Below, one piece after another: positions 1-15,932 of a stretch of DNA of 64,000 bases. How positions within the stretch are numbered: the first letter of the stretch is position 1; the number at the start of each line of letters is the position of its first letter. The translations under genes were made by a program, and so were the position numbers. This stretch comes from Clostridiales bacterium (lineage in GTDB: Bacteria > Bacillota > Clostridia > Christensenellales > CAG-314): the NCBI GenBank assembly GCA_003537755.1, contig DPQS01000029.1, positions 27,914 through 91,913 of the forward strand, given 5' to 3'. The notes under the pieces are model-generated. The model saw only the letters and a list, made by a program, of their open reading frames with translations, searched no databases and was not told the origin of the DNA.

Positions 1-153
1 ATTTTCATACCCGAGATCTATGCTTTTTTGCAAAATGGTTTCTCTTAATTTGTCGCTTATGTCCGACTTTCCGTTTAATGCTTTGTGTACGGTAACCTTG
101 GAAACGTTCAATTGATCTGCAATGGTTTGCATTGTAACCTTTTTTCTTGTCAT
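1..153 (-). CDS. LacI/GalR-family transcriptional regulator, N-terminal HTH only (gene continues past the left edge)
   Basis: My own translation of the minus strand from the ATG (complement of 151-153) gives MTRKKVTMQTIADQLNVSKVTVHKALNGKSDISDKLRETILQKSIDLGYEN, a classic LacI-type HTH. An AAAGGG SD lies 6 nt upstream. It is missing from the ORF track only because the edge truncates it. Confidence 0.8.
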   Translation of the reverse strand, partial: MTRKKVTMQTIADQLNVSKVTVHKALNGKSDISDKLRETILQKSIDLGYEN

Positions 154-259
154 ATTTTACCCTTTTTTACAGTCAACTTCTAACTTTGATTGAAGAGGTT
201 GTATTTTTCACAAAAACCTTTTTAATAATTTTAACACTTTATGAATACACTTGTCAATC

Positions 260-271
260 TGTTACGTAACA
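260..271. promoter_or_regulatory. Perfect 12-bp palindrome TGTTACGTAACA, candidate LacI-type operator
   Basis: TGTTAC|GTAACA sits in the divergent region between the LacI gene and the first operon. It has the central CG typical of LacI-family operators. No binding data. Confidence 0.35.
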
Positions 272-305
272 AAGAAGTGTATTTTTCGTAATTTTTGAAA
301 AGCTG

Positions 306-334
306 TTGAAAAGCTTATGCAAAATTGCTAAAAT
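306..334 (+). promoter_or_regulatory. Sigma-A-type promoter for locus A
   Basis: TTGAAA (306-311), a 17-nt spacer, then TAAAAT (329-334), about 48 nt upstream of the ATG at 382. A direct repeat TTGAAAAGC x2 overlaps the -35. Confidence 0.5.
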
Positions 335-381
335 AATATCGTATCGTCAATGCAAATTTCGTAAGTAAAGGGGTTTTTTTT

Positions 382-3300
382 ATGAAAAAGATTTACATAG
401 CGATTCTGTTAGCAATTACGATTTTATGCTTGCTTAGCACACTTGTCTTGTCAGCGTGTGATAAAAACGAGCATAGTGATAAAACGGAAGCGATATTAAC
501 TCAAACCGACGACAGCGTGATTATCGGCGTTAAGAAGATGCAAGAGTGGAAGTTCCGGCGTTCGGACGAAGATTGGATTTTTGAAGGTATATATGTAGAT
601 GGAAACAAAACCTTCGTGACGGAAGACGGCGGACTGTTTAGATTCTCACAGTTGACGTACAACAATGGGCGACCATTTTCGATTCTTGATACATCTATCA
701 AACAAATCAGCGTTGAAAGAAACGATAAGGAACAAAAGTCTGTTGTAATAAGCAACGATTATGTTTCTCTTACGCTTACTGCAGTTGATGGCTCTCCGTG
801 GATAAAAAGAAACTTTGCCGTCAATTTGCCTTGTGACAATCACTTTGCCGATTATCAAATCAGTTTTTCGTTGCGCACGGCCGACAACCTGTTTGACCGT
901 AAGGACGGTGCGATAACGACATTTAACAATTCTGTCACATCTGCAGAAATTCCGTATGCTTTTCCCTCAATTTACTCACAGTTTTTTGGAGAAAACAACA
1001 TAACTGACGTAATAAATATAGTCGACTACAATTCCTCCGACTCTGCTATAGGTAAAATGCGACTAAGAAAAGTAAAGGATGTTTTTGAAATAGGTTCGTG
1101 TTCGAAAGAATCTGACAAAAATAGCGGAGATGTGCTGTTTTTTAGTGATTATTGGTATACGAATTGCAACAGCGGCAATGATACTTATGATCTTATAGGA
1201 CTTATGTCTGAGCAAAATGCAATAGTAAGTCCAATGGCTTTTGAAAATCTGGCGTCTCAGGGAAATATAAATGCAAAAACGTTTAAGCAACTCAGTCAGG
1301 GGTTGTACAGTGATTTGTGCGATAGTCGTAGCGTAATCAACGGCGCATTTGTTCCATATGGCTACAGCTCAGGGTGGAGCGAATCGTTTGCCAGCTTTGA
1401 TGTTCTTAAGGGTATCGTGCGTTATGCAATGGCAACAAATGACTCGCAAATGTACAACAAAGCAATTGATATGGTGCGTTATTTGTTGGGTGACAATGGC
1501 TGGGTCACAAAATACAATGGCAAGAATGCTAAAAGTGATGAATACTTTTTGTATATGTCGTATGACGGCAAATTCGGAGCAAACTCCTCCGGGGAGGAAA
1601 CCGGCACCACGGCGGGAATATCTACTTGGAAATACTATGATATGATGGCCAATATTGCCGAGATAGCCGAATTGACAAAGGACAATGATATTGTAAACGG
1701 CTTCTTGCGTCTAATGCCTTTTTTCAATTCGCTTGTGTTAGATGACTACAATCAGCCTGTTGCCTGGTATTACGATACTCGCCAACCTGCCGCAGGTTAC
1801 GAGAACGGTGGCTCCGGCGGTGCTGCGGCAATTTGGGGCTACGTTCATCTTGTTGCGGGACAACTTGAGTCGTCTGACGAAACGGCTCAAAGATGGCAAG
1901 AGGACGGCTTGGCGGCATTGGAACATGCCAACAGTCTAGGGTTCTTTCAAATGTACTCTATTCGCGTGGCTGTAAAATCTGTTTCCCTGGGCTGGGCAGT
2001 GCGCGGTAACGTAAAAGCATATCAAATCACCGGCCAAAAGGAATATTTAGCAAATGCCTCTCATGTGGCAAAAGGATTAGCGTCCTTTTACTACGCAAAT
2101 ACAAACCCGTATACGTTCTTTACATCGTACGGATACTCGTATGCATGTACTAGAGAACGTTGGGAAGCGTACTTTGAAACGGCAAATGCTTTATGGTTGA
2201 TGGCAGATATCGCAAGTGAGATTCGCGATAATGATGCGCTTATGGACGTGTACTATGCTGCGTCAAAGTCACACCAATGGTTTTTCCCGGTAAATGCCAA
2301 TCCTTACGGCAATTTTACGGGTCCGCTTGACTCTTTGGACGCGCATTATGTTCCGTTTGAATTTGGTACCGGCGTGCTTACCGATGCCGCCGGAAATGAG
2401 GGCGGGACGCAATCCGCACTGCGACAAACAAAGGAAATCTATGGTTGTGGAGAAACATTTTTGGAATACCTGATGTTTGAAGCATATGCCCGATGCGTTG
2501 ATGAAAACTTGTTGACATTGTGCGTGACCGGGGCTAAAACGCCTTGTTCTACAACACAGAGGTTTGTTTTCTACAATCCGTTTGCAACGGAAGTATCATC
2601 GGTAGTAGAGTTTGACAATTTTGAAGAAGGAAACTACAAGTTAGTGGTTGACGGCCAAGAAAAAGGTATTTATTCACTTGCTCAACTAAAAAATGGCATA
2701 AAGTTTTCTGTTGCAGCACGTTTTTCTCAAACTGTTGTCATTCAAAAAGTCGGCGAGCAAACGGAATCGCAACTAAATGGCAAAGTAAAACTTAGCGTTT
2801 CCGACGTTTCGCACAAAAGCGCGATATTATCGTTTGGCGGCAAATATGATCATTATATTCTGAAGGTGTCAGAATATACAGACATGTCTGGCTTCTACAG
2901 AATAATTGTGACCGAGGAGGATTACACTCTGTACTTCGACGACGGGCAGGTTCTTTACGTCAACTGTTACGGAATAGACGAAAACGGTCATTCGTCGAAT
3001 TTAAGTGAAACCATACAAATTGAAGGACTGAATGCGGAAGTCGTGGCAAAAGAAACATTCGATTCGGGAAAAACCGACGGATGGACTGTAAACGGAGGTA
3101 GTATAAAGAGCGATTACTTTAGCGGACAGTTTACTCCATCGCAAAGGGATGCAGATACGCCTTTAGTTGCAGAAAAAACATTTAGCTTAACAACTGCGGC
3201 AACGGAATTTGAAATACGTTTTGTTACTAAAAATGCAAATAGTACGATAGATGTTACCGTTTCGGCAAATGGAAAAACAATAGAAGTTGTTAATGGCAAA

Positions 3301-4629
3301 AAGGTGCTGTCGGAAGGAAGTATATATGCATCTCTGGACACATTATTTGACCAAAACGGCAGTGGGGCGGACGTAACGGTAAGAATTGTGAGCGCAGGCG
3401 TAGACAAGGGGTTTTCAATTGACTATTTGCGTTTTGTAAACATCTCGCAACATACAGATGTCACGGCATTTTTAGAAAACAATTTTCAATCTACATGGGG
3501 AGAGAATAAAATTGTTGACGGCAATCTTGTGATCATTAACGACAAGGTGCCTACGGCTATTTCCCAACCCTCGGTTGATGTAACCTTCGACCCGATGGAA
3601 TTGACAACGATAGATGTGCAATTCGAGGGATATCGTGTCGTAGATACCGCGCGTATTACAATAAGCGATTGGCAGGGAAAAACAATTGCCGACACCGGAG
3701 ATTTTTCGGTAGCTATAAACGACGGAAAATTTACCTACGAGGTAACTAAGGACTTTGGCCTTACAAAGAAGGACAAATACACTATTGCGTACTACGTAAG
3801 TAACGATCGAGTTAAAGTGTCTAAAATGAGTTTGCTGGGGAAAAATGGCGGTACGATAGATATTGCTAAGCAAAACGGAGTCGTTGACGGCAACAACGCC
3901 TACATTAACGACGCAGGAGAAATTCGCCTGAAAAACGGAACAATTTATAATTATGGTGAAGTGCGAAAAACTATTCCTGTCGATTTGGACGCAAACCCGA
4001 TAGTGTTTGTAGACGTGGCTGAACTTAAAGGAGCATGGTCGGTAAAACTAATTCCGGAAGGAACCGAAGGAGACATAAGACTTTCGGCGGATACATCCGG
4101 GACCGGAGTCTTTGTGTATGATCTACGTAATGCGCTCAGCTTTTCCGGCAAGGGAAATGTGACATTTTGTTTTTACGTAATAGGCTCGGCTGCCGGAGAT
4201 CAGCAATGCTATGTAAAGATTCCGTCGGTGACATTCGGTAATAGCGTTGACTTGGTTGCTGAAAAAAACGATTGCGTTATTTCTCAAACAAAGTATTCTT
4301 TAGGTCGAGTAAATCTTGCCAATGCTCCGTTCTTGCATATAAACGTGTCCGATATATCGGCAGGTGCATCATGGAAGATTTGCGTAAAGGATGCTAATGG
4401 TAAAAAGTTGGAATTGCGCACTGTGCCGGAACGCAAATACAATTCAAAGTACTGCAGGTCGAAACGTGGACATTATGTGTTCGATGTAAGCGAGATAACC
4501 GGGCTAATCGGATTGCAACAGCTTGAAATTGTCATAGAGGTTGTTGGAAACTCTGCGCAGTGTGCGGTTGGAAATGTTTATTTCAGTGGAAATAACAGTT
4601 TGGGAAACAGATTGCCGCAGGCAATGTAA
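382..4629 (+). CDS. Large surface lipoprotein: unassigned putative glycan-active core, FN3-like domain and four C-terminal beta-sandwich-like modules
   Basis: AAAGGGG SD. Signal peptide with lipobox LVLSAC. Residues ~318-713 align by eye with ORF 11207..14230 (PYGY..SESFA..D..KG; YAC.(R/K)ERWEA; NPYGN; (V/I)PFEF.TG; EGG(T/S)QS..RQ.KEIYG.GE.FL). The C-terminal modules end in V(T/S)F.FY(V/I).G...(I/V)DY-type strands. Confidence 0.85.
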   Translation: MKKIYIAILLAITILCLLSTLVLSACDKNEHSDKTEAILTQTDDSVIIGVKKMQEWKFRRSDEDWIFEGIYVDGNKTFVTEDGGLFRFSQLTYNNGRPFSILDTSIKQISVERNDKEQKSVVISNDYVSLTLTAVDGSPWIKRNFAVNLPCDNHFADYQISFSLRTADNLFDRKDGAITTFNNSVTSAEIPYAFPSIYSQFFGENNITDVINIVDYNSSDSAIGKMRLRKVKDVFEIGSCSKESDKNSGDVLFFSDYWYTNCNSGNDTYDLIGLMSEQNAIVSPMAFENLASQGNINAKTFKQLSQGLYSDLCDSRSVINGAFVPYGYSSGWSESFASFDVLKGIVRYAMATNDSQMYNKAIDMVRYLLGDNGWVTKYNGKNAKSDEYFLYMSYDGKFGANSSGEETGTTAGISTWKYYDMMANIAEIAELTKDNDIVNGFLRLMPFFNSLVLDDYNQPVAWYYDTRQPAAGYENGGSGGAAAIWGYVHLVAGQLESSDETAQRWQEDGLAALEHANSLGFFQMYSIRVAVKSVSLGWAVRGNVKAYQITGQKEYLANASHVAKGLASFYYANTNPYTFFTSYGYSYACTRERWEAYFETANALWLMADIASEIRDNDALMDVYYAASKSHQWFFPVNANPYGNFTGPLDSLDAHYVPFEFGTGVLTDAAGNEGGTQSALRQTKEIYGCGETFLEYLMFEAYARCVDENLLTLCVTGAKTPCSTTQRFVFYNPFATEVSSVVEFDNFEEGNYKLVVDGQEKGIYSLAQLKNGIKFSVAARFSQTVVIQKVGEQTESQLNGKVKLSVSDVSHKSAILSFGGKYDHYILKVSEYTDMSGFYRIIVTEEDYTLYFDDGQVLYVNCYGIDENGHSSNLSETIQIEGLNAEVVAKETFDSGKTDGWTVNGGSIKSDYFSGQFTPSQRDADTPLVAEKTFSLTTAATEFEIRFVTKNANSTIDVTVSANGKTIEVVNGKKVLSEGSIYASLDTLFDQNGSGADVTVRIVSAGVDKGFSIDYLRFVNISQHTDVTAFLENNFQSTWGENKIVDGNLVIINDKVPTAISQPSVDVTFDPMELTTIDVQFEGYRVVDTARITISDWQGKTIADTGDFSVAINDGKFTYEVTKDFGLTKKDKYTIAYYVSNDRVKVSKMSLLGKNGGTIDIAKQNGVVDGNNAYINDAGEIRLKNGTIYNYGEVRKTIPVDLDANPIVFVDVAELKGAWSVKLIPEGTEGDIRLSADTSGTGVFVYDLRNALSFSGKGNVTFCFYVIGSAAGDQQCYVKIPSVTFGNSVDLVAEKNDCVISQTKYSLGRVNLANAPFLHINVSDISAGASWKICVKDANGKKLELRTVPERKYNSKYCRSKRGHYVFDVSEITGLIGLQQLEIVIEVVGNSAQCAVGNVYFSGNNSLGNRLPQAM

Positions 4630-4651
4630 ATAATACTAAAGGAGTATTTAT

Positions 4652-7600
4652 ATGAACAAAAGAATCATTTGTATCGTTTTGGCTATGATTTTTGTGTTAT
4701 GTTGCGTGATGCTGTCTGCATGCGCAGAACACGAATGTAGGCATGTGTGTCCTGAGTGCCAAAAATGCACGGATATCACCTGCAAGGACCCTGTTTGCGC
4801 CGATAAATGCAAGGGGCATACAAAACATGTTTGCGAGCATGTTTGCCCTGTGTGCGGCAAGTGTTTGGATCAAACTTGTAAGAACCCGGTATGCTCCGAT
4901 AAGTGTGACGGAAGCGATCGTATTGTCTATCGTGTAGAAGAAGAGTTTGACAATTCTGAAACCGATTTCGCAAATTGGGATAATGGCGAAATAAAAGACA
5001 TGCACAAGGTTGAAAACGGTAAACTCTTTTTGACGAATACCGGGACAACGGATTATCCTAGCAAAGGTCGCGTTCTTACTGTTACAATAGAGAAGTTCCG
5101 CTACTTGGCGGTAAAGGTTGATTCTCTTGAAGGATCGGATGCCAAATGGTCTATGAAAGTACAATTTGCCCAAGATGAAACGTCAAGCAGAGTTTTAATC
5201 GCGGACAACAAATCTACGGGTTTGCTTTGGGCGGATTTACTTTCTGTTGACGGAATGCCGACTTCCGGTGATGTGACTTTTACGTTGTATATCTACATTC
5301 TGGGCACAAATAGTCAAATCTCTATAGATTATATACGCTCAATAAACGAAATCCCTACGGTACAAGATTTTTCCGAGCAAGGAGATATTAGCGTAACGGA
5401 CGGAACGCTGAGTTTCTACGAAGGTGTAGTAAACGTGAAGTCAGACGCCGGCAAGGTGGCAAAGGTATCTGTTCAGTTTAGTTTTCCTCACAACTTGGTT
5501 AACATGATAGACTTGTACGTAACACAAGTGCAAAACGGGTCATTGTGGTCGCTTTCATGTGACGATATTGTACTTGTTGAGCCAAACGGAAGCATTGGTG
5601 CATTCGGGATAGACGGATTAGTCGCAAAAATCCCTGACGGCAAAACTACTCTGGTATTGTCTGTTCAAGGTGAATGTGTATTTGACAGGATTGCAGCGGT
5701 AGCTTACAATGCTTATGAAGATACTTTGTCCTACAGCTCGGACGATGAACTTCTTTCTGTGTGGAAAGAGCAAGGCTCGGCTTATGTTGAACGTTCGAAC
5801 GGTATGAAGATTAAAAGAGTTTCAAGCGTTGATGAGCCTGCTGCCGTACAGACTTCGGTTACCACCAACATTGCAACATACCCGCAACTTGATGTCGTTG
5901 TTTCGGCTCTTGACAATGCCAAAATAGAGGTTTACTTTGGCGCGGTCAAAGTAGGCGAAATATCTCAAGTCGGAACGTCAAGCTTCAATTTGCTATCGGC
6001 TTATGTCAACGGCGTAGTAACAACTGCACTGAAAATTGTTGTTGTGCCGAACGACGAAGGGTCGCAGGACGTAGACGTTTCGGCAACAATTACAGCGGTT
6101 AAAATCGTCAGAAATGCCGAATACAGTAAAAATGCTCCCGCTCCTAAAGGTACTCAAAAAGAGTGGAACGGTTTCATGAACGAACAGGGTAATAATGCTG
6201 ACAATTTTAGTGGCGATGCCGTAACATATGCGCTTGGCGGAAGTCTTTACATTGTGCAAACTTCATCTGAAGGATATTCCAAAGCGGAAGTTCTTGTAAA
6301 AAATGTTGATTTCTCTGTAAACAGGTATCTGAATATTAAGATAGACGCCATCACTGACGGCGCAAAATTCAAGGTTGATGTTATTCGTAACGTCCAACTT
6401 GAAGGGGAACAAGTGGTGACTGTAATTGGCGAGACTAATCAGACAGGCGTATACACGATCGATTTGTACGCTGTGTTTGGACTTAATCCTGACAATGCAA
6501 CATCTCAAAGAGTATCGTTCTCGATTTTTATTGTAGGCGCAACAGGAAGCAGCTGTCAGGTAGACTACATCAAGTACAATAATACTATAGACGAGGCGCC
6601 GCAAATCATTGACGTAAAACCTACGACAAACGTTACTGTAACCGTTGACGAAGAAGTGGAACTATCTGCCGGCCTTAAATACCACCAAGGAACGGTAGAC
6701 ATAGCGGCATTTATAAATGGTCAAAACGTTACTGAAGATGTTGTTCTCAACGGCATTTTCCGTGCAAATAAATCGGGACAATATACAGTCGTTTTCTCAT
6801 ATCAAGGTGCTCAAAGCCAAGAAAGAACAATTAAAGTAGTGGAAAAGCAACCTATAATTCGAGTTGAAACGGAATCTCAGTCGGTAGTCGTAAATCAGGA
6901 TGTCGAGATTAAGTATAGTATCGCAAACGCTTCGGAAGGTGCAACCGCATCAATAATCGTGAGTCTTGGTGACGACGATGTGACCGCATCTGTTTTGACT
7001 GATAATGTATTTAGAGCAACTTCCACCGGCGAATACACGGTAACTTTTGCTTACGACAATGCCGATTCGCAACAAATCGTTATTACGGTGGTGTCGCACT
7101 GGACATCTACGGATACAAATATTACTATTGCCGAAAACGATGGAACACTTACGATTTTGGCACATAATCAATGGCCGAAAGCGCAAAGAACATTCCGCGA
7201 TATGGTAATTGACGATGCTCCGTACTTAAAAATATCAATAGCCGAAGCAACTGACGCTAATTACAAAATAGAGTTCGGTGACGACTACTACAACGATAAG
7301 CGAGTAATTAAGGCTGAAAGTTGTGAAAAGGGCGTATTTTATATCGACTTACGTCAAGCGCCTTACGAGGGCAAAACAGATAAACCGCAAACAATCACAT
7401 TCTATATTTACGCTGTCGGTACTAACCAAAAGGTAGTGATAGACTGCTTTGATTTTGTAAAGGAAAATCCGCAGGGATCGCAACCAAAGTATGTGTGGAC
7501 AACAAAAGAATCCCACATGACGATAACGCAAACAACGGACAGGCTTGTATTGCATGCGGAAAAAGATTGGCCAAAGGCACAAACTACCATAAACGATATG

Positions 7601-7891
7601 GTAATTGACAATGCTCCGTATCTAAAAATATCAATTTCCTCCGAAACAACCGCAAGATATAAAATCGAGTTCGGTGATGACGCCAGCGGAACGTTCAACA
7701 CAATAAAGGCCGAAAGCGACGAAAAGGGCGTGTTTTACATCGACCTGCGCCAAGCACCCTATGAAGGTAAATTTGATACCGCGCAGACTATCACGTTTTG
7801 TATTTTTGCGGTAGGGACAAACCAAGATGTGGTGATAGACTGTTTTGAATTTATAACAGAAGCGGAATACAATGCTGTTCAAGGAGAATAA
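4652..7891 (+). CDS. Surface lipoprotein: Cys-rich stalk, six ~125-aa modules of unknown family and two Ig-like domains (probable glycan-binding protein)
   Basis: AAAGGAG SD. Lipobox VMLSAC. A duplicated CxxC-rich motif follows the lipobox. Internal module repeats are visible by eye. Two Ig-like repeats each end in G(Q/E)YTV(V/T)F(S/A)Y. Confidence 0.85.
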   Translation: MNKRIICIVLAMIFVLCCVMLSACAEHECRHVCPECQKCTDITCKDPVCADKCKGHTKHVCEHVCPVCGKCLDQTCKNPVCSDKCDGSDRIVYRVEEEFDNSETDFANWDNGEIKDMHKVENGKLFLTNTGTTDYPSKGRVLTVTIEKFRYLAVKVDSLEGSDAKWSMKVQFAQDETSSRVLIADNKSTGLLWADLLSVDGMPTSGDVTFTLYIYILGTNSQISIDYIRSINEIPTVQDFSEQGDISVTDGTLSFYEGVVNVKSDAGKVAKVSVQFSFPHNLVNMIDLYVTQVQNGSLWSLSCDDIVLVEPNGSIGAFGIDGLVAKIPDGKTTLVLSVQGECVFDRIAAVAYNAYEDTLSYSSDDELLSVWKEQGSAYVERSNGMKIKRVSSVDEPAAVQTSVTTNIATYPQLDVVVSALDNAKIEVYFGAVKVGEISQVGTSSFNLLSAYVNGVVTTALKIVVVPNDEGSQDVDVSATITAVKIVRNAEYSKNAPAPKGTQKEWNGFMNEQGNNADNFSGDAVTYALGGSLYIVQTSSEGYSKAEVLVKNVDFSVNRYLNIKIDAITDGAKFKVDVIRNVQLEGEQVVTVIGETNQTGVYTIDLYAVFGLNPDNATSQRVSFSIFIVGATGSSCQVDYIKYNNTIDEAPQIIDVKPTTNVTVTVDEEVELSAGLKYHQGTVDIAAFINGQNVTEDVVLNGIFRANKSGQYTVVFSYQGAQSQERTIKVVEKQPIIRVETESQSVVVNQDVEIKYSIANASEGATASIIVSLGDDDVTASVLTDNVFRATSTGEYTVTFAYDNADSQQIVITVVSHWTSTDTNITIAENDGTLTILAHNQWPKAQRTFRDMVIDDAPYLKISIAEATDANYKIEFGDDYYNDKRVIKAESCEKGVFYIDLRQAPYEGKTDKPQTITFYIYAVGTNQKVVIDCFDFVKENPQGSQPKYVWTTKESHMTITQTTDRLVLHAEKDWPKAQTTINDMVIDNAPYLKISISSETTARYKIEFGDDASGTFNTIKAESDEKGVFYIDLRQAPYEGKFDTAQTITFCIFAVGTNQDVVIDCFEFITEAEYNAVQGE
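4724..4912 (+). repeat. Tandem duplicated cysteine-rich motif (14 Cys in 63 aa) directly after the lipobox Cys
   Basis: The two copies are HECRHVCPECQKCTDITCKDPVCADKCKGH and KHVCEHVCPVCGKCLDQTCKNPVCSDKCDG. Shared pattern: H-V-C-P-x-C-x-K-C-x-D-x-T-C-K-x-P-V-C-x-D-K-C. Confidence 0.8.
7097..7888 (+). repeat. Tandem pair of ~131-aa modules at the C-terminus of ORF 4652
   Basis: Copy 1 spans 7097-7489 and copy 2 spans 7490-7888. Shared blocks: WPKAQ, DMVID(D/N)APYLKISI, YKIEFGDD, IKAES.EKGVFYIDLRQAPYEGK, QTITF.I(Y/F)AVGTNQ.VVIDCF(D/E)F. Nucleotide differences are mostly at third codon positions. Confidence 0.9.
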
Positions 7892-7895
7892 TGCA

Positions 7896-9248
7896 ATGAA
7901 AAAATTGATTGTTTTGTTGTTGCTTTGTGTACTGATGCTGCCTTTTGCCGCGTGTGTAAAAACCCCCGACAGCGATACGAGTAATCAAATAACCGTTTTG
8001 TTCGACAACAAAGATACAAGACTATATCAAAAGATCATAGAACGATTTGAAACGGATTTTCCTCAGTATAAGGTGAATCCTATATGGACTGGCGGTGACG
8101 ATATTCAAACAACGCAAGTTACAAAAATTGGTAACGGCACTGCACCCGACATTATTGTCGGTGGAGACATGTACACCGAAATATATCGTCGTAATTTAGT
8201 CGATCTAACTGAATATATCGAGCGTGACAAGGAACAGCTGAATCTTGATGATATTGTGGGCGGAGTAATGGATCACATGAAAAACAGTGATGGGCAAACG
8301 GTCTTTTTGCCAAGATCGTTCAACTGTAGCTTCCTTTATTACAATAGAGATTTGTTTGATGCAAAACGGGCTGAATTGCTTGCGCTGAATCTTCCTTGCG
8401 AAGAAGGAACTCCCGAAAACGAAAGACACTACCCGAATTCTCAATGGACGATAGCGGACTTCTTTAAGGCCGGCGGAGTGCTTACGCTGTACGAAAACGG
8501 TAATTGTATACAATGGGGTAGCGAAACGCTTACTACCTGGTGGGGAGAATGGCTTATTCATGTTCGTCAAAGCGGCGGAGATTTGTTTGATGCAGACGGA
8601 AATGTTAGTTTCGACAATGACAATTGCAAAAAAGCCATGCAGATAATGCGCGACAAGTCCTATGGCAATCCAACCAATGGCAGACCGAAGATCACATACG
8701 CTCCCGGCGAAACCGATTTTAGCGGTTTTCAGGGAGGAAAGGTTGCAATGGTTTACGGCGGTCATACAAACAACTGGATTCGGTACGATGAAGTTGGCTT
8801 GAATTGGGGAATGACAGTGTTGCCTACAGGTCTTGAAACTCGTAACGGTGCCGAATATGCCATAGAAGGATACGGAATTAGCAAAACAAGCAAGAATAAG
8901 CAAGGTGCATGGGAATTTATCAAGTACCTGAACAATAAGAATGCAATAGATGAACTTGTTGAGCAGGGCGGTCTTCCGATTCGCGTTTCGTCACTAAACG
9001 CCATGCAAAGCGGAGAACGTAAAAATCGTTGTACCCTTGCGTTGGAAGCGATAAATCCAAATGGTAAATACGGTAATTATGCTTGTACTTTGCCGAGATA
9101 TGAGTATTTCGTTGAAATAGCAAATACGGTTGCTTCTGCGGAAATCGGTCTGATGATGTCCAACGATGGTTCGCGTATTTCTATTGATCAATGTGTAAAG
9201 AATATTCAAACAAAAGGTAACAACCTGATAGAGATAAATTATAGATAA
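7896..9248 (+). CDS. ABC sugar transporter substrate-binding lipoprotein (CUT1-type)
   Basis: I prefer the start at 7896 (AAGGAG 10 nt upstream) over the track start 7872. N-terminus MKKLIVLLLLCVLMLPFAAC carries a lipobox. About 450 aa, followed by two permease genes. Confidence 0.85.
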   Translation: MKKLIVLLLLCVLMLPFAACVKTPDSDTSNQITVLFDNKDTRLYQKIIERFETDFPQYKVNPIWTGGDDIQTTQVTKIGNGTAPDIIVGGDMYTEIYRRNLVDLTEYIERDKEQLNLDDIVGGVMDHMKNSDGQTVFLPRSFNCSFLYYNRDLFDAKRAELLALNLPCEEGTPENERHYPNSQWTIADFFKAGGVLTLYENGNCIQWGSETLTTWWGEWLIHVRQSGGDLFDADGNVSFDNDNCKKAMQIMRDKSYGNPTNGRPKITYAPGETDFSGFQGGKVAMVYGGHTNNWIRYDEVGLNWGMTVLPTGLETRNGAEYAIEGYGISKTSKNKQGAWEFIKYLNNKNAIDELVEQGGLPIRVSSLNAMQSGERKNRCTLALEAINPNGKYGNYACTLPRYEYFVEIANTVASAEIGLMMSNDGSRISIDQCVKNIQTKGNNLIEINYR

Positions 9249-9267
9249 AAAAGGTGAGGAATTCTTC

Positions 9268-9305
9268 CGCGGCATCAAACCTGTCAACGACGTTTTGTTG
9301 CCGCG
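9268..9305 (+). other. Intercistronic stem-loop between the binding-protein and permease genes
   Basis: CGCGGCA (9268-9274) pairs with TGCCGCG (9299-9305). There is no U-tract, so it is more likely an mRNA-stabilising or processing hairpin than a terminator. Confidence 0.4.
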
Positions 9306-9417
9306 TAAGAGTTTTGTTTCTAACGAAGAAGCGGAGTAAGTTGACTGCCGATATCAAATACTTTACGATGACGGTTGTTAGTTATGGAGTACTGGAGAAA
9401 GAGAGGATTTAGAGGTA

Positions 9418-10335
9418 ATGAGAAAGCTGATCGGAAAAAGACAACGTAGAAAAAACTTAGCGTTTTATATGTTTGTAATGCCGGCAATCTCGGGCTTTTT
9501 AATATTTACGTTGTATCCAATGATTCGGTCGCTATGGTTTAGCTTTACTGATGCCAGTTTGCTATACTTGGACGAAGCGGAATGGGTCGGATTTAAGAAT
9601 TACTACAACTTGCTTAGCGGCAAAGATAGTTATTTTTGGCAATCTATGGGTAATACGTTTATTTTTGCATTGTTTAACGTTGTCGGTACGCTATTGTTTG
9701 GGTTGATTACGGCAATTCTGCTTACTCGTAACGTCAAGTTTATCAATGTATTCCGTACAATATTCTACTTGCCATCGCTGTTGCCTGCCGTTGCTTCCGC
9801 ACTTATGTTCAGGTGGGTTTTTGATCCGTCTAATGGTATGGTAAATAATATTTTGCGCGTGTTTGGTGTTTCTAACCCGCCTATTTGGCTAGAAAGTGCT
9901 AGTACCGCTTTGTTGACGCTAATATTCATATCATTATATGGTTTTGGTGGCAAAATGATTATTTTCATGAGTGGAATTAACGGAATTTCAAAGGAGTATT
10001 ACGAGGCTGCGGATGTGGACGGTGCGGGATTTTGGACAAAACTATTTAAGATTACATTGCCGCTTCTGTCTCCGATAATTTTTTATAACCTTGTTTTGGG
10101 AACAATCGGCGCATTACAAGTGTTTACCGAGGGTTTTGTAATCAGCGGTGCGGGACCGGGCAACTCTACGTTGTTTTATGTATTGAGGTTGTACAATATT
10201 GCTTATAAGGCTCCTTACAAAATCGGGTATGCTTCTGCAATGGCGTGGATTTTGTTTGTAATAATCGGCGTGATTACCTTGGTCTATTTCGCATTCAGCA
10301 AAAAGTTTATTTTCTATGAAAACGAGGAATCTTGA
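9418..10335 (+). CDS. ABC sugar transporter permease (MalF/UgpA-like)
   Basis: Multi-span hydrophobic profile. EAA loop EYYEAADVDGAGFWTKLFKITLPLLSP. Confidence 0.9.
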   Translation: MRKLIGKRQRRKNLAFYMFVMPAISGFLIFTLYPMIRSLWFSFTDASLLYLDEAEWVGFKNYYNLLSGKDSYFWQSMGNTFIFALFNVVGTLLFGLITAILLTRNVKFINVFRTIFYLPSLLPAVASALMFRWVFDPSNGMVNNILRVFGVSNPPIWLESASTALLTLIFISLYGFGGKMIIFMSGINGISKEYYEAADVDGAGFWTKLFKITLPLLSPIIFYNLVLGTIGALQVFTEGFVISGAGPGNSTLFYVLRLYNIAYKAPYKIGYASAMAWILFVIIGVITLVYFAFSKKFIFYENEES

Positions 10336-10336
10336 C

Positions 10337-11203
10337 ATGAGGAGCAAAAAGTTCAAAACCGAAAAAGTAGTAACGTATACGTTGCTTATTATCGTATCTC
10401 TAGCAATGCTTATGCCGTTGGTAGTGTTGTTTGCTACCAGTGTACGTACATACGATGATCTGGTACAAAATCCTACGCACTTGTTTGGTACCGAGTTTTC
10501 TTTGGATGCGTTTGCTAAAGTGTTGGAAGAAAATCCTTACTTCATGTACTTGGGAAACACGCTGCTTATAACAGTGGTCAGTATTGTGGGGTGTTGCTTT
10601 ACAAGTGCAATGGTCGGATATGGGTTTGCAAGATTCAAGGCTCCCGGATCAAAGTTTCTGTTCGCCTTGTTTATGGCAGGAATGATTATTCCCGGACAAG
10701 TATTGAATATTCCGATGTTTGAGATTTACAAACGTCTAGGTTGGATAAATACTTTTTTGCCGTTTATTATTCCCGTATGGTTTGGCGGAGGAACATTCAA
10801 TTTCTTTTTGCAACGTCAGTTTATGAAAGGGTTACCGCCGGCACTTATGGAGGCTGCCGAAATTGACGGTTGCAGTGAGGTCGGCATTTTCTTCAGGATA
10901 GTGTTGCCGCTTTCTAAGCCTGTGATAACAACAATTGCAGTATTCACTTTTATCAATTGTTGGAACGATTTGTATGGTCCGTTACTTTACTTGGAAGATC
11001 CGTCTTTGTGGACGCTTGCAAAGGGAAACTATATGATTTACCAGGCTGAGCTTGGCAAACAAGGTGTAAGTGGCGGTTCTATTTTGCCATGGAACATAAT
11101 TAGCGCCGCTAATGCGATATCGATTGTCCCGATAATAATTCTTTACTTCTTTGCACAACGAGTTTTTGTTGAAGGTATTGCCACGACGGGGATAAAAGGA
11201 TAA
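10337..11203 (+). CDS. ABC sugar transporter permease (MalG/UgpE-like)
   Basis: I prefer the start at 10337 (GAGGA ~9 nt upstream, 1 nt after the upstream stop) over 10316. EAA loop LMEAAEIDGCSEVGIFFRIVLPLSKP. Confidence 0.9.
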   Translation: MRSKKFKTEKVVTYTLLIIVSLAMLMPLVVLFATSVRTYDDLVQNPTHLFGTEFSLDAFAKVLEENPYFMYLGNTLLITVVSIVGCCFTSAMVGYGFARFKAPGSKFLFALFMAGMIIPGQVLNIPMFEIYKRLGWINTFLPFIIPVWFGGGTFNFFLQRQFMKGLPPALMEAAEIDGCSEVGIFFRIVLPLSKPVITTIAVFTFINCWNDLYGPLLYLEDPSLWTLAKGNYMIYQAELGKQGVSGGSILPWNIISAANAISIVPIIILYFFAQRVFVEGIATTGIKG

Positions 11204-11206
11204 AAA

Positions 11207-14200
11207 ATGAGTTTACTTATTATTAGTGTTCCTGAAGGAATAAAATATACGACAAAACAAATTGTCATTGGTGGCGTTACGAAATACGTCGTTACGATTT
11301 CATCAGACTCAACGGTAACGCTGTCGGAAGGGGCAATAAAAATCGGATACTTCGGTTTTGTTAAAGACAGTCTTGTAATGACGCACATGCCTGAGATCTC
11401 TAACTGTGATCTGCCATTCGCTTTCCCCGCATTTTGTGCCAAAGTAAACGCAGGCGGCGTCTATTTTGTTGTTGATTACTACAAAACGTCCGTTGAACTA
11501 CGCAAAGTAATTGCATCGCAAGGAGAAAACGCATGGGTTTCGCTTACAAATGCGTGTACGACGTTAGGCAAGAATAAGAAACTCTCTGCAGTGTTGTATT
11601 TGGGTGAAACTCAATCTGACAGTTTGTCTGATTTGATAGGAAATTGCGCCCAAACTCTACTTGAAACGGAATCCTACTTAAAAAGAGAATACGCGGTTGT
11701 CGGAGGACAGACTGTCGATTCCTATAAACAGGCGTGTGTCGGATTGGTGTCTAATCTAATGGACAAACGTGCCGTGGTAAATGACGGAATAGGTACTTTT
11801 AATCCATACGGGTATCACGAGATTGGCGCATATAGCGAAAGTTTTGCATGCATGGATGTCGCAAAGGGGATGTATCGTTTTGCATTGAGCAACGACCTTT
11901 ACGGTCCGTTAGAATACATAAAAAAGGAAGTTTACAAGTTGTGCGACGCTTCGTTGAAGCATCCGTGGATTGCAGATTGTCACAATACGCATGGATTTTT
12001 TCATTTCGCATGGGGTTCAATTCCGCAAGACTCAGGAGTGGCAGCAGACATTCCGCGCGATGACCTTTTCTCTGACTATTGCGGTCATGAGGAAGGCGAA
12101 AATCTGCTTTCGACGTTTAAGTATTTCGATCGAGTAAATATTCTTGGTGAAATTGCTTTGTTGCAAAATGATTCGGTAATTAAAGACGGCTTTCTGCGAA
12201 CGTTACCATTTGTTGAAACTTTAAGAAACGAAGACTTTTCTCAACCGGTATCGTATGATTTGGACACTCACGTGCCTGTAACCGGAAACTATGACGGTGG
12301 TAGCGCAGGCGGAGCCGCATTGTATGCGCTAATCAACTTTAACGCATATCGTTTGACGAATGACGAGCGATACCTTGATTTTGCTTTACGTTCGGTAAAG
12401 GCGGCCAACAAGTTGGACTACGACCATATGTTTTCTATGCGTTGCGCTCCCAAACCAATCGCGGTGGCGGCAGTTGTTCGTGCAAACGTATATGCGTATC
12501 AGTTTACAGGTGAAAGTGAGTATTTATATAATGCCGAACGCGTAGCCCAAGGAATATTTGCAAGCTACTATCTTTCGCCGCATCCGTACTGCTATTTTTC
12601 CACTGTAGGCTTCGGATACGCTTGCGCCAAGGAAAGATGGGAAGCATTTCGTGAGATGGAAGAAACTTTGTGGTTGCTTAGTCCGTTTATGAAATACACC
12701 GACAGTGAGGCATTGTTTACTTTATATTTGCTAAATAAACAGAGCGCATTGCGTGCATTACCTATAAACGGTAATCCGTATGGTAATTTGGAAAGAGAAT
12801 ATGAATCGTTCGGAGGGGAGTATATTCCGTTTGAATTTTCCACCGGACATGTCGGGGACAATCCTCCGCAAGAAGGCGGGAGTCAGTCTGATAAACGACA
12901 GATAAAAGAAATTTACGGTAGCGGTGAACTATTTTTGGCGGAACTCATGTATGAAAATTACGCTCGAACAAATCAACCGCATATACTTATTCTGTGTGTC
13001 GATTGTGACATAACATTGCCGAAAAACCAGTTTGTATTTAAGGTCTTTAACCCTCGGAAACAAACCTATGCTTTGGCTACATTCAATGTTCCGAAAGGAA
13101 ATTACGAGTTGATGTACGGAAACCAAAAACTGACGTTTAGCGACAAAACTTTGGCAATAGGCGTCAAGCTAAGCGTGCAGCACGGAGTAACGCAGCTCAC
13201 ATTAAAGAGAACGAGCAAGCCCAAACATGAGCTTGTTGAAAAAAAAGAAGAAGATACCGTAGTTGCAACTCAAATTGGAGACGAAGTGTGCTTAAAGTGG
13301 CGAAAACAAATCGGTGCGCAGTTTTATAAAGTTATCTGTTGTACGGAAATCGGCAAAAAAACACACCTTACAACTAATCAAGAGATCAGTATTGTTATTG
13401 ACTCTGAATTGACGACGGAAATCGAAGTGCTTGCCATTACAAAATGTAGCATTGTAACTGTGGGTAAGAAGACGTTGCGAGGACATAAAAAGTTGTACGA
13501 GTCAAGTCTTGTCGATTTGTTGAATGACAGCACGAAAGTAATCACAAGCAATTTCGATGTCGTTTCTGACGGACACACGTTGATGTTTTATCGTAAAGAA
13601 TTGTGCAAAAACAAGGGCAGAATACTTTTTGATTTAGGAAATATCAAAGGCAATTATTATTTTGAAATCCAAATAGGATCGGTAAACAACGGAGTGCATT
13701 ATACGATTACCGTTTCGGACGGAAAAGATAGATTTGTAACGCAGAATATAAATGATGCGAGATATTTTTGCTCCGAGATGACTTTTGACGGACACGTTAC
13801 TGTGTGTCTAGACGTGCGTTCCGATGCAGGTTTGGGGCTATCCGTAACGAAGTTGTCATTGTATAAAACCGTTTGTTGCGGAAATCCCGTTTTGCCGTTG
13901 CGAATGATAAAAAACGGTGTACGTGCCGAGATAAAAGAAAACTTCTACTATGCCGTGGTAGTGATAACAAAAATAGATAAAGCGTTTGAAATATTGCTGG
14001 ATGGCGAGCCTACATATGGATTGACCGAGCTTAAATTTTTCGACAAGGTAAATCGTCAAAATCGCGGTATATATAAGATTCCATTGAAGAATGGGGCAAA
14101 AACTATAGAAATAAAAGGTATTGGCGGTGGTGTTGAGGTAAAATGCGTTAGATTGACTCAATTCTACGATTACCCGCTGCTTACAGACTACTTAGATTTA

Positions 14201-14230
14201 TCAGACGAGAGGAAGTTTAACAATGATTAG
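11207..14230 (+). CDS. Cytoplasmic paralog of the ORF 382 core (no signal peptide), with FN3-like and C-terminal beta-sandwich-like modules
   Basis: No N-terminal hydrophobic segment (MSLLIISVPEGIKYTTKQ...). Residues ~195-590 share the PYGY/ERWEA/NPYGN/PFEF.TG/KEIYGSGE blocks with ORF 382. It lies directly between the permeases and the GH130 gene. Confidence 0.85.
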   Translation: MSLLIISVPEGIKYTTKQIVIGGVTKYVVTISSDSTVTLSEGAIKIGYFGFVKDSLVMTHMPEISNCDLPFAFPAFCAKVNAGGVYFVVDYYKTSVELRKVIASQGENAWVSLTNACTTLGKNKKLSAVLYLGETQSDSLSDLIGNCAQTLLETESYLKREYAVVGGQTVDSYKQACVGLVSNLMDKRAVVNDGIGTFNPYGYHEIGAYSESFACMDVAKGMYRFALSNDLYGPLEYIKKEVYKLCDASLKHPWIADCHNTHGFFHFAWGSIPQDSGVAADIPRDDLFSDYCGHEEGENLLSTFKYFDRVNILGEIALLQNDSVIKDGFLRTLPFVETLRNEDFSQPVSYDLDTHVPVTGNYDGGSAGGAALYALINFNAYRLTNDERYLDFALRSVKAANKLDYDHMFSMRCAPKPIAVAAVVRANVYAYQFTGESEYLYNAERVAQGIFASYYLSPHPYCYFSTVGFGYACAKERWEAFREMEETLWLLSPFMKYTDSEALFTLYLLNKQSALRALPINGNPYGNLEREYESFGGEYIPFEFSTGHVGDNPPQEGGSQSDKRQIKEIYGSGELFLAELMYENYARTNQPHILILCVDCDITLPKNQFVFKVFNPRKQTYALATFNVPKGNYELMYGNQKLTFSDKTLAIGVKLSVQHGVTQLTLKRTSKPKHELVEKKEEDTVVATQIGDEVCLKWRKQIGAQFYKVICCTEIGKKTHLTTNQEISIVIDSELTTEIEVLAITKCSIVTVGKKTLRGHKKLYESSLVDLLNDSTKVITSNFDVVSDGHTLMFYRKELCKNKGRILFDLGNIKGNYYFEIQIGSVNNGVHYTITVSDGKDRFVTQNINDARYFCSEMTFDGHVTVCLDVRSDAGLGLSVTKLSLYKTVCCGNPVLPLRMIKNGVRAEIKENFYYAVVVITKIDKAFEILLDGEPTYGLTELKFFDKVNRQNRGIYKIPLKNGAKTIEIKGIGGGVEVKCVRLTQFYDYPLLTDYLDLSDERKFNND

Positions 14231-15272
14231 ATGCGAGAGTAATCCAATAATTACAAAAGCCGACGTGGCTCCGTCAACACCGCAAATGGAAGTGCTTGGA
14301 GTTTTTAATTGCGGAGTTGCAAAATATAACAATCAAACTATACTATTGCTTAGAGTCGCCGAAAAAGCCATAGATGTAAACGGATTTGTTCGTGTGCCTA
14401 TTTTTGATGTACAAACAAATCGAGAGGTTATTTGGGATTTCGATACAAATGACCGCTCTATCGATTTTTCCGATGTGAGGTTTGTAAAAACAAAAGATCA
14501 ATTGTTTCTTACAAGCAAATCGCATTTGCGTTTGGCGCGTAGTACTGACGGTATTCATTTTTTAATTGATGATAAACCTTTTCTGTCATCACAATTCTTC
14601 TACGAGGAGTACGGAATAGAAGACCCTCGTATTACGTTTGTTGATGACTGGTATTACATAGACTACAGCGCAACTTCAAGACATGGAGTTTTTACGTGTT
14701 TGGCACGTACCAAAGATTTTGTATCCGTAGAAAAACTAGGCATTATATTTTTGCCGGACAACAAAGACGTGAGTATTTTTCCTCAGAAAATAAACGGGAA
14801 GTATTATGCGCTCAATCGTCCGGTAAGCGCATACTTTCAACGCCCGGAAATGTGGATTTCGACGTCTGCCGATTTGCGCTCTTTTTCGGAGCATCATTTA
14901 TTGTGTGAGCCGCGTCCCGATAAATTTGATAGTACTCGTATAGGCGCAGGGTGTGTTCCTGTGTTAACTTCGAAAGGTTGGCTGGAAATCTATCATGGTT
15001 GTGACAAAAACGACAAATACTGCATGGGTGCACTGTTGTTAGACGCCAATGATCCTACGAAGATTATTGCAAGAAGCGACGAACCTCTACTTCAACCGGA
15101 AATGCCTTACGAGTTAAACGGATTTATGCCGAGTGTTGTATTTGGATGTGGGCTTTTGCAAGAGGGCGACGAATTGAAGCTGTATTACGGCGCATGCGAC
15201 GAAAGCATTTGCTTGGTGTCATTCAGCATAGAAGAAATTCTGCATTCGCTTACTTATATCAACAATATATAA
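14223..15272 (+). CDS. GH130-family beta-mannoside phosphorylase/hydrolase-like protein
   Basis: GAGGAAG SD. It overlaps the upstream stop by 8 nt. Motifs: NPIITKADV, GVFNCG, EDPRITFVDDWYYIDYSA, GAGCVPV.T.KGWLEIYHG, MGALLLD..DPTKIIARS, LKLYYGACD. Confidence 0.75.
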   Translation: MIRCESNPIITKADVAPSTPQMEVLGVFNCGVAKYNNQTILLLRVAEKAIDVNGFVRVPIFDVQTNREVIWDFDTNDRSIDFSDVRFVKTKDQLFLTSKSHLRLARSTDGIHFLIDDKPFLSSQFFYEEYGIEDPRITFVDDWYYIDYSATSRHGVFTCLARTKDFVSVEKLGIIFLPDNKDVSIFPQKINGKYYALNRPVSAYFQRPEMWISTSADLRSFSEHHLLCEPRPDKFDSTRIGAGCVPVLTSKGWLEIYHGCDKNDKYCMGALLLDANDPTKIIARSDEPLLQPEMPYELNGFMPSVVFGCGLLQEGDELKLYYGACDESICLVSFSIEEILHSLTYINNI

Positions 15273-15476
15273 AATAAAATTCAAGTAATGCCGGGTGTCA
15301 ATTGGCTCTATTTTGAGTAACTTACTACAGAAGGGATTTGAATAATGGTAATAGTGATAGCTGTATAGTGTAATACGACTTAAAATGAGGTTACCGTATT
15401 TAATATAAATAGTATCTTAGGTTGTTATTCAAATCAGATTCAAAAAGAATTCGTTCTTATCTAACCACGCTGTTTG

Positions 15477-15567
15477 AAAAATACCGAATGAAATTTCAAA
15501 ATCGTGCCGATTGGAAAGTTAAAATATTGCCGATTGAATTCTGAAAATTGTGCCGATTGCCGCACTG
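15477..15567. repeat. Phased direct repeats AAAAT-NN(N)-TGCCGATTG, three exact cores at 23-bp spacing plus a degenerate flanking unit
   Basis: TGCCGATTG occurs at 15505, 15528 and 15551. The units start with A-tracts at 15498, 15521 and 15544. A degenerate unit AAAAATACCGAATG lies at 15477. All are inside a 0.9-kb AT-rich non-coding gap. Confidence 0.7.
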
Positions 15568-15896
15568 AAAAACTAATTATAGACGATTGTAGAAGTGTGA
15601 AATTGTAACTAAAATAAAGTCCGATTTATTGAAAAATAGTAACTAAAAACTATTGTGGTTCGACGGTGTTTGCGTCCGTGCCACCACATTTCGGCTTATT
15701 CGATTCCGAGTAAGCCGATTTTGCCGTTTGGGGGACATTTTCCCGGTAAAAGATAACAAAAATCATTCCCCGAATCTGCTCAAAAACAGGGCAATTAAAA
15801 CATGTCTTAGTTTATGCAAGGCGGAAACCAACTAATTATAAGCGTTTGTTAACGCATGTATAAAATACGTTTCCACAAACACTTTTTTGTTTTACG

Positions 15897-15932
15897 GCGA
15901 CAGGGCTATTTTCTTGTCTCCGCATTTTTTTT
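15897..15932 (+). terminator. Imperfect rho-independent terminator-like hairpin plus T8
   Basis: GCGACAGG (15897-15904) pairs with CTTGT..CGC (15913-15923) with a 3-nt bulge, then A + TTTTTTTT (15925-15932). It lies 625 nt downstream of the GH130 stop, so what it terminates is unclear. Confidence 0.35.

Follow-up and report, generated by a model that had tools for sequence, protein, structure and literature searches.

Secreted and cytoplasmic toroid paralogs beside a GH130 phosphorylase gene: candidate members of an unclassified glycoside hydrolase family for beta-1,2-mannoside utilization

Introduction

We describe a glycan-utilization locus in a 64,000-nucleotide stretch of DNA from a Clostridiales bacterium (CAG-314; assembly GCA_003537755.1, contig DPQS01000029.1, positions 27,914 to 91,913), here called the window, and in particular the products of two of its open reading frames (ORFs), those starting at positions 382 and 11207. 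The two are paralogs, one a surface lipoprotein and the other cytoplasmic, that share an (alpha/alpha)6-toroid core; between them lie genes for an ATP-binding cassette (ABC) importer, and behind them lies a gene of glycoside hydrolase family 130 (GH130). We propose, with our confidence about evenly divided, that the paralogs are the catalytic members of an unclassified family of (alpha/alpha)6-toroid glycoside hydrolases, serving a LacI-controlled system of beta-1,2-mannoside utilization by endo cleavage outside the cell and trimming inside it.

How might such a system work? At the cell surface ORF 382, together with a second lipoprotein, ORF 4652, would cut the polymer endo-wise to oligosaccharides, which a binding protein and two permeases would take up. 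ORF 11207, which has a clade-specific loop insertion by residue E295, would trim the oligosaccharides to a degree of polymerization (DP) of 2-3, and a lidded phosphorylase of the GH130 subfamily 4 (GH130_4) type, accepting DP2-3 only, would convert these to mannose 1-phosphate and mannose, the whole operon presumably being governed by the LacI regulator. The substrate would most simply be beta-1,2-mannan or oligomannan. A wider proposal is that the core founds a new GH family that includes the first endo-beta-1,2-mannanase and a cytoplasmic oligomannan trimmer, that the locus is the first complete pathway by which bacteria forage on beta-1,2-mannan, and that the family is the tip of a larger unannotated superfamily; this we offer tentatively, as a claim that could easily prove too ambitious.

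The two paralogs and their fold

BLASTP aligns residues 174-786 of ORF 382 with residues 53-666 of ORF 11207, about 610 residues, at 34% identity and 51% positives over 637 columns (E 2e-88), and the paralogy is thus far above chance. A first-pass annotation of this DNA, made from the sequence alone, had described a shared region of about 400 residues and had quoted the conserved blocks PYGY, SESFA..D..KG, YAC.(R/K)ERWEA, NPYGN, (V/I)PFEF.TG and EGG(T/S)QS..RQ.KEIYG.GE.FL. All of the blocks fall within the BLASTP alignment, and the shared region is real, but it is larger than was thought, as it includes beta-sandwich on either side of the helical core.

The two proteins also differ in their predicted location, as that annotation had said. 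Lipoboxes were read from translations, as a signal peptide ending [LVI][ASTVI][GAS]C. ORF 382 begins with MKKIYIAILLAITILCLLSTLVLSAC, a lipoprotein signal with the lipobox LSAC. ORF 11207 begins with MSLLIISVPEGIKY, which holds no hydrophobic signal and is modelled by AlphaFold2 as the first strand of a beta-sandwich, with a predicted local distance difference test score (pLDDT) of 84-94. The parts of the two paralogs, and the GH130 gene that ends the locus, are as follows.

382..4629, plus strand: ORF 382, surface-anchored lipoprotein paralog of 1415 residues (signal and lipobox; BLASTP core)
382-459, plus strand: signal and lipobox of ORF 382, followed by a clade-specific N-terminal domain
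901-2739, plus strand: shared core of ORF 382
1171..2487, plus strand: (alpha/alpha)6 toroid of ORF 382, residues ~264-702, placed by BLASTP alignment onto the AlphaFold2 borders of the cytoplasmic paralog
2740-4629, plus strand: C-terminal region of ORF 382, 600 residues, beta-rich
11207..14230, plus strand: ORF 11207, cytoplasmic paralog of 1007 residues, no signal (BLASTP and AlphaFold2)
11207-11611, plus strand: N-terminal beta-sandwich of ORF 11207
11612-12961, plus strand: toroid of ORF 11207
12632..12643, plus strand: ERWE motif, E476-E479, where helix 11 of ORF 11207 begins, invariant in the family
12833..12859, plus strand: PFEF...GD segment of ORF 11207 with E543 and D551, both invariant in the 34-sequence family
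12962-13213, plus strand: C-terminal beta-sandwich of ORF 11207
13214-14230, plus strand: 340-residue beta-rich extension of ORF 11207 (residues 670-1007), restricted to the cytoplasmic clade
14223..15272, plus strand: GH130 subfamily-4-like beta-1,2-mannobiose/-triose phosphorylase, last gene of the locus (Pfam GH130, E 6.9e-51)

AlphaFold2 was run with the family alignment on residues 1-678 of ORF 11207 and on the toroid alone. The longer model (pLDDT 85; predicted template modelling score, pTM, 0.90) consists of an N-terminal beta-sandwich (residues 1-135), a toroid of twelve long helices (140-517) with a capping helix (572-582), and a C-terminal beta-sandwich (586-669); the toroid alone reached a pTM of 0.89. 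An (alpha/alpha)6 toroid has its twelve helices in six inner/outer pairs, joined by short connections on one face and by long active-site loops on the other. The resemblance to this fold that had been noted from the sequence is upheld, and Foldseek relates the core to many toroid enzymes with a probability of 1.0. Against the PDB, Foldseek returned only generic toroid relatives, at 15% identity or less. For the whole protein these were an SSV19 tail protein, the lyase BACCELL_00875, GH94 phosphorylases, GH95, GH116, GH9 and GH127 (E 3e-9 to 5e-6, TM-score (TM) 0.2-0.6), and for the toroid alone, epimerases and isomerases of the AGE superfamily, GH76 mannanases and GH9 enzymes (E 2e-6 to 3e-4, TM ~0.5).

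Does the core belong to a known family? Searches were made of Pfam (2025), NCBIfam (2026) and the PDB (2026). ORF 382 had no Pfam match and two sub-threshold NCBIfam signal-peptide matches only, and the matches of ORF 11207 were likewise all sub-threshold (C5-epim_C, 15.9 with a cut-off of 23.3; GH127_cat, 13.6 with a cut-off of 24.9). When 34 family members were scanned individually, no Pfam family was matched by more than five at E<=1, C5-epim_C being matched by five (E>=0.0014). Nothing significant came from phmmer and family-profile searches of the PDB or from searches with two distant relatives; a profile match to BT_3782 (4mu9; E 0.024) covers one 34-residue helix motif. The source names of family members are all "hypothetical protein," bar a single UniProt automatic name, "Glycosyl hydrolase 36 catalytic domain-containing" for P0013, which could not be reproduced with Pfam. 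The literature that we searched, on beta-1,2-mannanase, the context of Lin0857, DUF1861 and the physiology of Peloplasma, does not describe the family. As judged by Pfam, NCBIfam, the PDB and this literature, the core is unclassified and probably lies outside the known CAZy families, in keeping with the earlier failure to place it.

The catalytic signatures checked for four toroid fold relatives were absent. Members of the AGE superfamily have a conserved catalytic His on inner helices, and the match of our proteins to them is at the level of fold only, with no invariant or near-invariant His. GH127 and GH146 enzymes use a Cys nucleophile and a Cys3-Glu zinc site; our family has no invariant Cys, and only one of the 34 members matches PF07944, at 13.6-14.5 bits where the cut-off is 24.9. 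GH76 enzymes have an Asp-Asp pair (cf. the D136/D137 variants of 6y8f), for which there is no invariant equivalent here, nor is there a Pfam GH76 match at E<=1. The lack of an invariant His, Cys or Asp-Asp therefore argues against catalytic machinery of the AGE, GH127 or GH76 type.

Conserved residues and a candidate active site

The alignment of the 34 family members has 50 invariant and about 65 near-invariant columns. All 50 invariant columns map to a single face of the toroid, either to its long loops or to the helix turns adjoining them, and the loop face is the substrate-binding side in toroid carbohydrate enzymes; in the models, the invariant residues would thus sit at the expected substrate side. 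They include eight carboxylates (D186, E295, E476, E479, E543, D551, E568 and E574, in ORF 11207 numbering) along with many aromatics, much as the first-pass annotation had claimed. No His, no Cys and no Asp-Asp pair is found among the invariant columns, and no His among the near-invariant ones.

Which carboxylates might be catalytic? We aligned 14 distant superfamily members to the hidden Markov model of the family. All distant relatives with residues aligned there keep P541-x-E543, nearly all keep D551 and Y570, and about half keep E568; the ERWE motif is not retained. Because E543, in the PFEF block, and D551 persist in the distant relatives, we propose these two as the best candidates for the catalytic carboxylates (E660 and D668 are the corresponding residues of ORF 382). 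Conversely, the loss of ERWE in the distant relatives leads us to propose that this motif is likely a determinant of substrate specificity. Proteins of the cytoplasmic clade have a 10-residue insertion at residues 276-285 and fixed substitutions around the invariant E295, which would fit a changed shape of the cleft.

The GH130 partner and the proposed substrate

The GH130 protein of the window matches Lin0857 (PDB 5b0p), from Listeria, end to end (E 2e-104), spanning Lin0857 residues 5-350 and so covering the lid loop of about 50 residues (52-105). The Arg and Glu that confer beta-1,2 specificity are kept, and the LLLRVAEK and GIEDPR segments are conserved. The five-bladed propeller profile, the lid and the specificity residues place the protein in GH130 subfamily 4, with NCBIfam NF050092 scoring 440 bits, below its cut-off of 550. 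The lid restricts GH130_4 enzymes to DP2-3 (PMC12814180), and an upstream activity that shortens longer chains would therefore be needed.

A second propeller family points the same way. In the homologous locus L023, a DUF1861/GT108 gene takes the place of GH130; its product matches Leishmania MTP-4 (6q50) with E 1e-99, and a bacterial GT108 enzyme has been found to be a beta-1,2-mannoside phosphorylase/transferase (PMC10913872). The core is thus associated with two propeller families, both acting on beta-1,2-mannosides, and no other evidence for the substrate class is as strong. We infer that the locus glycan is specifically a beta-1,2-mannoside, which narrows the beta-mannoside-containing glycan of the first-pass annotation. 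The GT108 gene of L023 adjoins a gene for a GH38 alpha-mannosidase and P0032, a divergent, fn3-containing member of the toroid family (L023 positions 10485-11468 and 11483-14650), and L023 could be a bacterial counterpart of mannogen turnover.

Homologous loci in other genomes

The recurring gene order is secreted copy, surface protein, solute-binding protein, two permeases, (GH130), cytoplasmic copy and GH130. The order seen in the window recurs in two Clostridia-like metagenome-assembled genomes (MAGs), Mycoplasmatota zrk7, Peloplasma aerotolerans, Acholeplasmataceae MAGs and a contig binned as Trichloromonas, with a rearranged form in Cohnella sp. 56. Every complete locus has the cytoplasmic paralog; the C-terminal region of ORF 382 is a separate gene in the Mollicutes and in L024. 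Eleven loci have enough flanking sequence to be assessed, and ten of them, from several phyla, keep the logic that had been recognized earlier, that is, an outside copy, an importer, an inside copy and a beta-mannoside phosphorylase-type propeller. Eight of the 11 carry a GH130 closely related to that of the window (49-71% identity, Lin0857-like, with the lid), one has a divergent GH130 only, and one (L023) has the DUF1861/GT108 gene instead, plus GH38.

The Mollicute loci add a second, divergent GH130, a small Lyx_isomer-type cupin and a PfkB kinase, that of Peloplasma also an SASA-type acetylesterase and that of zrk7 a class II aldolase (accessory genes at L014 7867-9474, L002 9465-10004 and L001 14196-16042). 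These accessory genes hint at an acetylated substrate and at a route from mannose through fructose to fructose phosphate. The family member of Cohnella sp. 56 has as neighbors a two-component system, an AraC regulator and a DUF5696 protein (E 5e-173; L011 1983-4718), and regulation there differs from the LacI type of the other loci.

Alternative readings

Several observations sit uneasily with the proposal. L009 has no GH130 within 10 kb and has CBM96/GH28-like proteins instead. The first gene of the Peloplasma locus (L014) is that of the SASA-type acetylesterase, a hint that the mannan is decorated and not plain. Seven Arg/Lys residues are invariant, as would equally be expected if phosphate or an anionic substrate were bound, and the most conserved loops (residues 465-468, 520-525 and 546-564) are modelled at a pLDDT below 50. 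The pathway gives no explanation for the 340-residue extension of the cytoplasmic enzyme, which has no Pfam or PDB match, and the proposal presupposes a natural extracellular source of beta-1,2-mannan in these habitats.

What else might the core do? The main rival, which we think unlikely, has the core acting on some other bond of a heteroglycan or glycoconjugate in which beta-1,2-Man units are no more than a constituent. The core could free blocks of beta-1,2-mannobiose or -triose from a different backbone or aglycone, or take off a cap, with GH130 catalyzing only the last step. The acetylesterase or GH38 alpha-mannosidase of some loci and the GH28/CBM96 neighbors in L009 would fit such a role, and specificity is not constrained by homology, since ERWE is not common to the distant relatives. 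Yet the core gene set has no other glycosidase, the window locus having the two paralogs and GH130 only, and the accessory catabolic genes are all for mannose. It is quite improbable that the core is instead a glycoside phosphorylase of GH94/GH65 architecture (beta-sandwich, toroid, beta-sandwich) acting on longer oligomannans. Foldseek matches to a GH65 enzyme and to cellobiose and chitobiose phosphorylases of GH94 do extend over all three domains (E 5e-8 to 5e-6), and both the invariant Arg/Lys residues and the unreproduced GH36 name of P0013 could be cited in its favor. Membership in GH94 fails, however, on a structural overlap with a root-mean-square deviation of ~23 A, a TM of ~0.3 and 7-10% identity, and on PF17167, which matches 0/34 members at E<=1; a membrane-anchored extracellular copy would be atypical for a phosphorylase, and the loci already have one or two phosphorylases of the propeller type.

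The known toroid polysaccharide lyases of the PL8, PL15 and PL21 type use a His/Tyr/Asn(/Arg) catalytic set. In our family Tyr, Asn and Arg are invariant and His is not. The first-pass annotation had allowed for a new GH or PL family, and of the two we favor the hydrolase. A lyase acting on an acidic, mannose-containing polymer is suggested by a Foldseek match to BACCELL_00875 (5no8; E 2e-8), by the weak C5-epim_C matches of five of the 34 members and by the many invariant basic residues and Tyr/Asn; it seems to us very improbable, given the absence of an invariant His, the absence of uronate-catabolic genes (KduI/KduD, GH88/GH105) from the 11 loci, and a match of the toroid alone to 5no8 that covers only 292 columns at TM 0.3. 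A shade less credible again is an epimerase or isomerase of the AGE type, akin to cellobiose 2-epimerase or mannose isomerase, that would remodel mannose at the reducing end. The best toroid-only Foldseek matches are of this kind (3vw5, 8wbu and 5x32; E 2-4e-6, TM 0.5-0.6), and epimerase and GH130 pairs are reported to occur in beta-1,4-mannan pathways (PMC12871903). The identity, however, is 9-15%, GH76 and GH9 hydrolases score almost equally, and a lipoprotein copy fused to 600 residues of surface domains, with flanking beta-sandwiches, is ill-suited to a small-sugar isomerase. AGE enzymes, moreover, need a catalytic His, whereas no His is invariant here. We give least credence to a non-catalytic, glycan-binding or scaffold module. 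Although the extracellular proteins are rich in beta-sandwich repeats of the binding type, a scaffold would hardly account for a cytoplasmic paralog in every complete locus, or for 50 invariant columns, eight carboxylates among them, that all lie within or beside a single loop face.

Comparison with known systems

How does the proposed hydrolase system compare with better-known ones? The endo-beta-1,2-glucanases of GH144 (bacteria) and GH162 (fungi) feed sophorooligosaccharide importers and GH94/GH3 enzymes. Such systems resemble the one that we propose here, with a toroid depolymerase for a beta-1,2-linked homoglycan, import, and cytoplasmic phosphorolysis. They differ in that our core has no sequence match in the PDB, that neither GH144 nor GH162 is among the top 50 Foldseek matches, and that the window locus has a mannoside-specific GH130 downstream and an extra cytoplasmic paralog. 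The GH76 alpha-1,6-mannanases share the toroid fold (E 5e-6 to 1e-4, TM up to 0.7 on the target) and the helix motif Y.LTGD..YL..A with the core; they are surface-lipoprotein endo-mannanases of yeast-mannan loci, whereas the partners of our core are beta-mannoside enzymes. The AGE toroids (cellobiose 2-epimerase, mannose isomerase and YihS) are the best toroid-only match and act on sugars of the mannose type, but they lack flanking beta-sandwiches and secreted forms, and their catalytic His is not conserved in the family.

The mannogen cycle of Leishmania, run by GT108 MTPs, turns over beta-1,2-mannan by phosphorolysis, as would the pathway proposed here, and P0032 adjoins a GT108 homologue; the Leishmania cycle differs in being an intracellular turnover of storage material. 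We know of no toroid hydrolase tied to that cycle, nor did we find one in the literature examined. The cluster Teth514_1785-1796 of Thermoanaerobacter sp. X-514 is similar in having an ABC importer and GH130 phosphorylases for the uptake of 1,2-beta-oligomannan (PMC4264767). It differs in its gene content, with GDP-mannose genes, a GH5 enzyme and two phosphorylases of GH130_6, and the published account describes no toroid paralogs and identifies no extracellular depolymerase (PMC4264767). The resemblance of the GH130_4 beta-1,2-mannobiose phosphorylases Lin0857 and Uhgb_MS is to the GH130 partner only, not to the core.

Rarity and evolution

The family is rare yet phylogenetically scattered. 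Word-indexed searches of 5.8 billion proteins gave 18 and 16 relatives, and an exhaustive profile search of 1.84 billion cluster representatives gave 119 matches at E<=1e-3, 34 of them at E<=1e-30. A scan of genomes, one per species for 185,579 species, found 11 loci, to which a scan of 241 million metagenome-contig records added five; both scans use exact peptide patterns and therefore undercount.

What is the history of the two paralogs? The members fall into a lipoprotein clade (~800 residues, 13 members, a signal sequence in all and a lipobox in most) and a cytoplasmic clade (~1000 residues, no signal, the clade-specific 340-residue C-terminal extension). Core identity is 53-58% within clades versus 37% between them, and in a neighbor-joining tree the cytoplasmic clade is monophyletic. 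From these identities and the monophyly it follows that the split is ancient, the duplication predating the spread of the locus. Among the proteins of the window there is no third paralog.

More distantly, some 85 further proteins of 700-1500 residues (P0061-P0144) have only the last helices plus the C-terminal beta-sandwich, or part of the toroid. Twenty distant relatives that were scanned are named "hypothetical" and have no significant Pfam match other than one 3-keto-disaccharide-hydrolase domain, with GH127 sub-threshold, and the genomic contexts of two (L015 and L016) were uninformative. These proteins may belong to a larger unannotated toroid superfamily with P-x-E543 and D551 in common.

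Regulation and the remaining genes of the locus

The locus is a set of seven co-directional genes, from ORF 382 (382-4629) through the GH130 gene (14223-15272). The features other than the paralogs and GH130 are these.

1..153, minus strand: N-terminal helix-turn-helix of a LacI-family regulator, truncated where the window begins, divergent from the locus
260..271, no strand: perfect 12-bp palindrome TGTTACGTAACA, candidate LacI operator in the divergent promoter region
4652..7891, plus strand: ORF 4652, second surface lipoprotein, 1079 residues, between ORF 382 and the solute-binding protein
7896..9248, plus strand: solute-binding lipoprotein of a CUT1-type carbohydrate ABC importer (Pfam SBP_bac_1, E 1.3e-26)
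9418..10335, plus strand: ABC permease 1 (Pfam BPD_transp_1, E 3.4e-13)
10316..11203, plus strand: ABC permease 2 (Pfam BPD_transp_1, E 3.1e-19)

The first-pass layout of a binding protein, two permeases and GH130 agrees with Pfam, but it left out ORF 4652, and the divergent LacI-type regulator at 1-153 was likewise overlooked. The regulator matches Pfam LacI (PF00356) with E 2.6e-7 and 30.8 bits, exceeding the cut-off of 27. The window has a single copy of the palindrome TGTTACGTAACA, which separates the LacI-type gene from the operon. The 12-mer is found in identical form upstream of the secreted paralog in the Acholeplasmataceae locus L013 (3158-3169) and between the LacI gene and the operon in the Peloplasma locus L014 (7768-7779); LacI genes flank the homologous loci L014, L023 and L024. 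TGTTACGTAACA is a candidate for an operator conserved across phyla, and its presence in identical form at equivalent places suggests that the whole regulated locus moves horizontally. Promoters and terminators were also scanned for, but with no excess over shuffled sequence, and that scan was set aside. The G+C content is 0.385-0.434 in window positions 1-16000 versus 0.445-0.537 in 16000-64000; the lower value for the locus fits horizontal acquisition, and relatives occur in low-G+C Mollicutes.

The solute-binding protein has a lipobox, FAAC, at its N-terminus; its start in the ORF list is 7872, and the likely start is 7896 (MKKLIVLL...), the protein being called as 450 residues in L003. ORF 4652 also has the lipobox LSAC, as read from its translation, followed by Cys-rich repeats and then by Ig-like and unassigned beta-sandwich repeats, its only Pfam matches being Ig-like and all sub-threshold. 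Orthologues lie at the equivalent position in six other loci (L001, L002, L004, L005, L012 and L014), and ORF 4652 probably serves in glycan capture or as a scaffold. The Cys-rich repeats, HVCPxCxKCxDxTCKxPVCxDKCxG, are two in number, lie directly after the lipobox (residues ~24-90, window 4720-4930) and have no Pfam match. The motif is unusual for a bacterial surface lipoprotein; the repeats are perhaps metal-binding or disulphide-rich.

Implications

The beta-1,2-mannoside enzymes known to us are the exo-acting propellers of GH130 and GT108, and no enzyme that depolymerizes beta-1,2-mannan endo-wise was found in the literature searched. In Candida albicans, beta-1,2-oligomannosides act as adhesins and immunodominant epitopes, and Leishmania requires mannogen for its virulence (for background see PMC4264767 and PMC10913872). 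If the proposal is true, specific hydrolases would therefore be useful as analytical, diagnostic and possibly therapeutic tools. The source of DP2-3 substrates for lidded GH130_4 phosphorylases would also be explained, and the carriers might forage on, for example, the cell-wall beta-mannosides of Candida or the mannogen of trypanosomatids. The proposal gives a rare, phylogenetically scattered locus a hypothesis of function, and it points to the ~85 further part-fold proteins, of which those scanned have, with one exception, no significant Pfam domain. The cultured carriers Peloplasma aerotolerans M4Ah, Mycoplasmatota zrk7 and Cohnella sp. 56 make the hypothesis directly testable.

Neighboring glycan clusters

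The window as a whole is an island of stacked glycan loci. After a gap of 900 bp, a second cluster (16179-40501) encodes a GH29 fucosidase, a GDSL esterase, permeases, DUF4838, GH20 and GH1 proteins. It has two more GH130s, at 18873-19934 and 21167-22240, for which the best NCBIfam match is beta-1,2-mannobiose phosphorylase at 216-235 bits. Pfam gave nothing for the proteins encoded at 20062-21054 and 22233-23942, and for a 1453-residue protein (25845-30206) a marginal Ig-like match only. A third cluster (41042-57823) contains permeases (44221-46062), a 1381-residue protein with no Pfam match (45969-50114), a DUF4838/GH67N-like protein (50111-52024) and surface proteins with Big_2 and Flg_new repeats.

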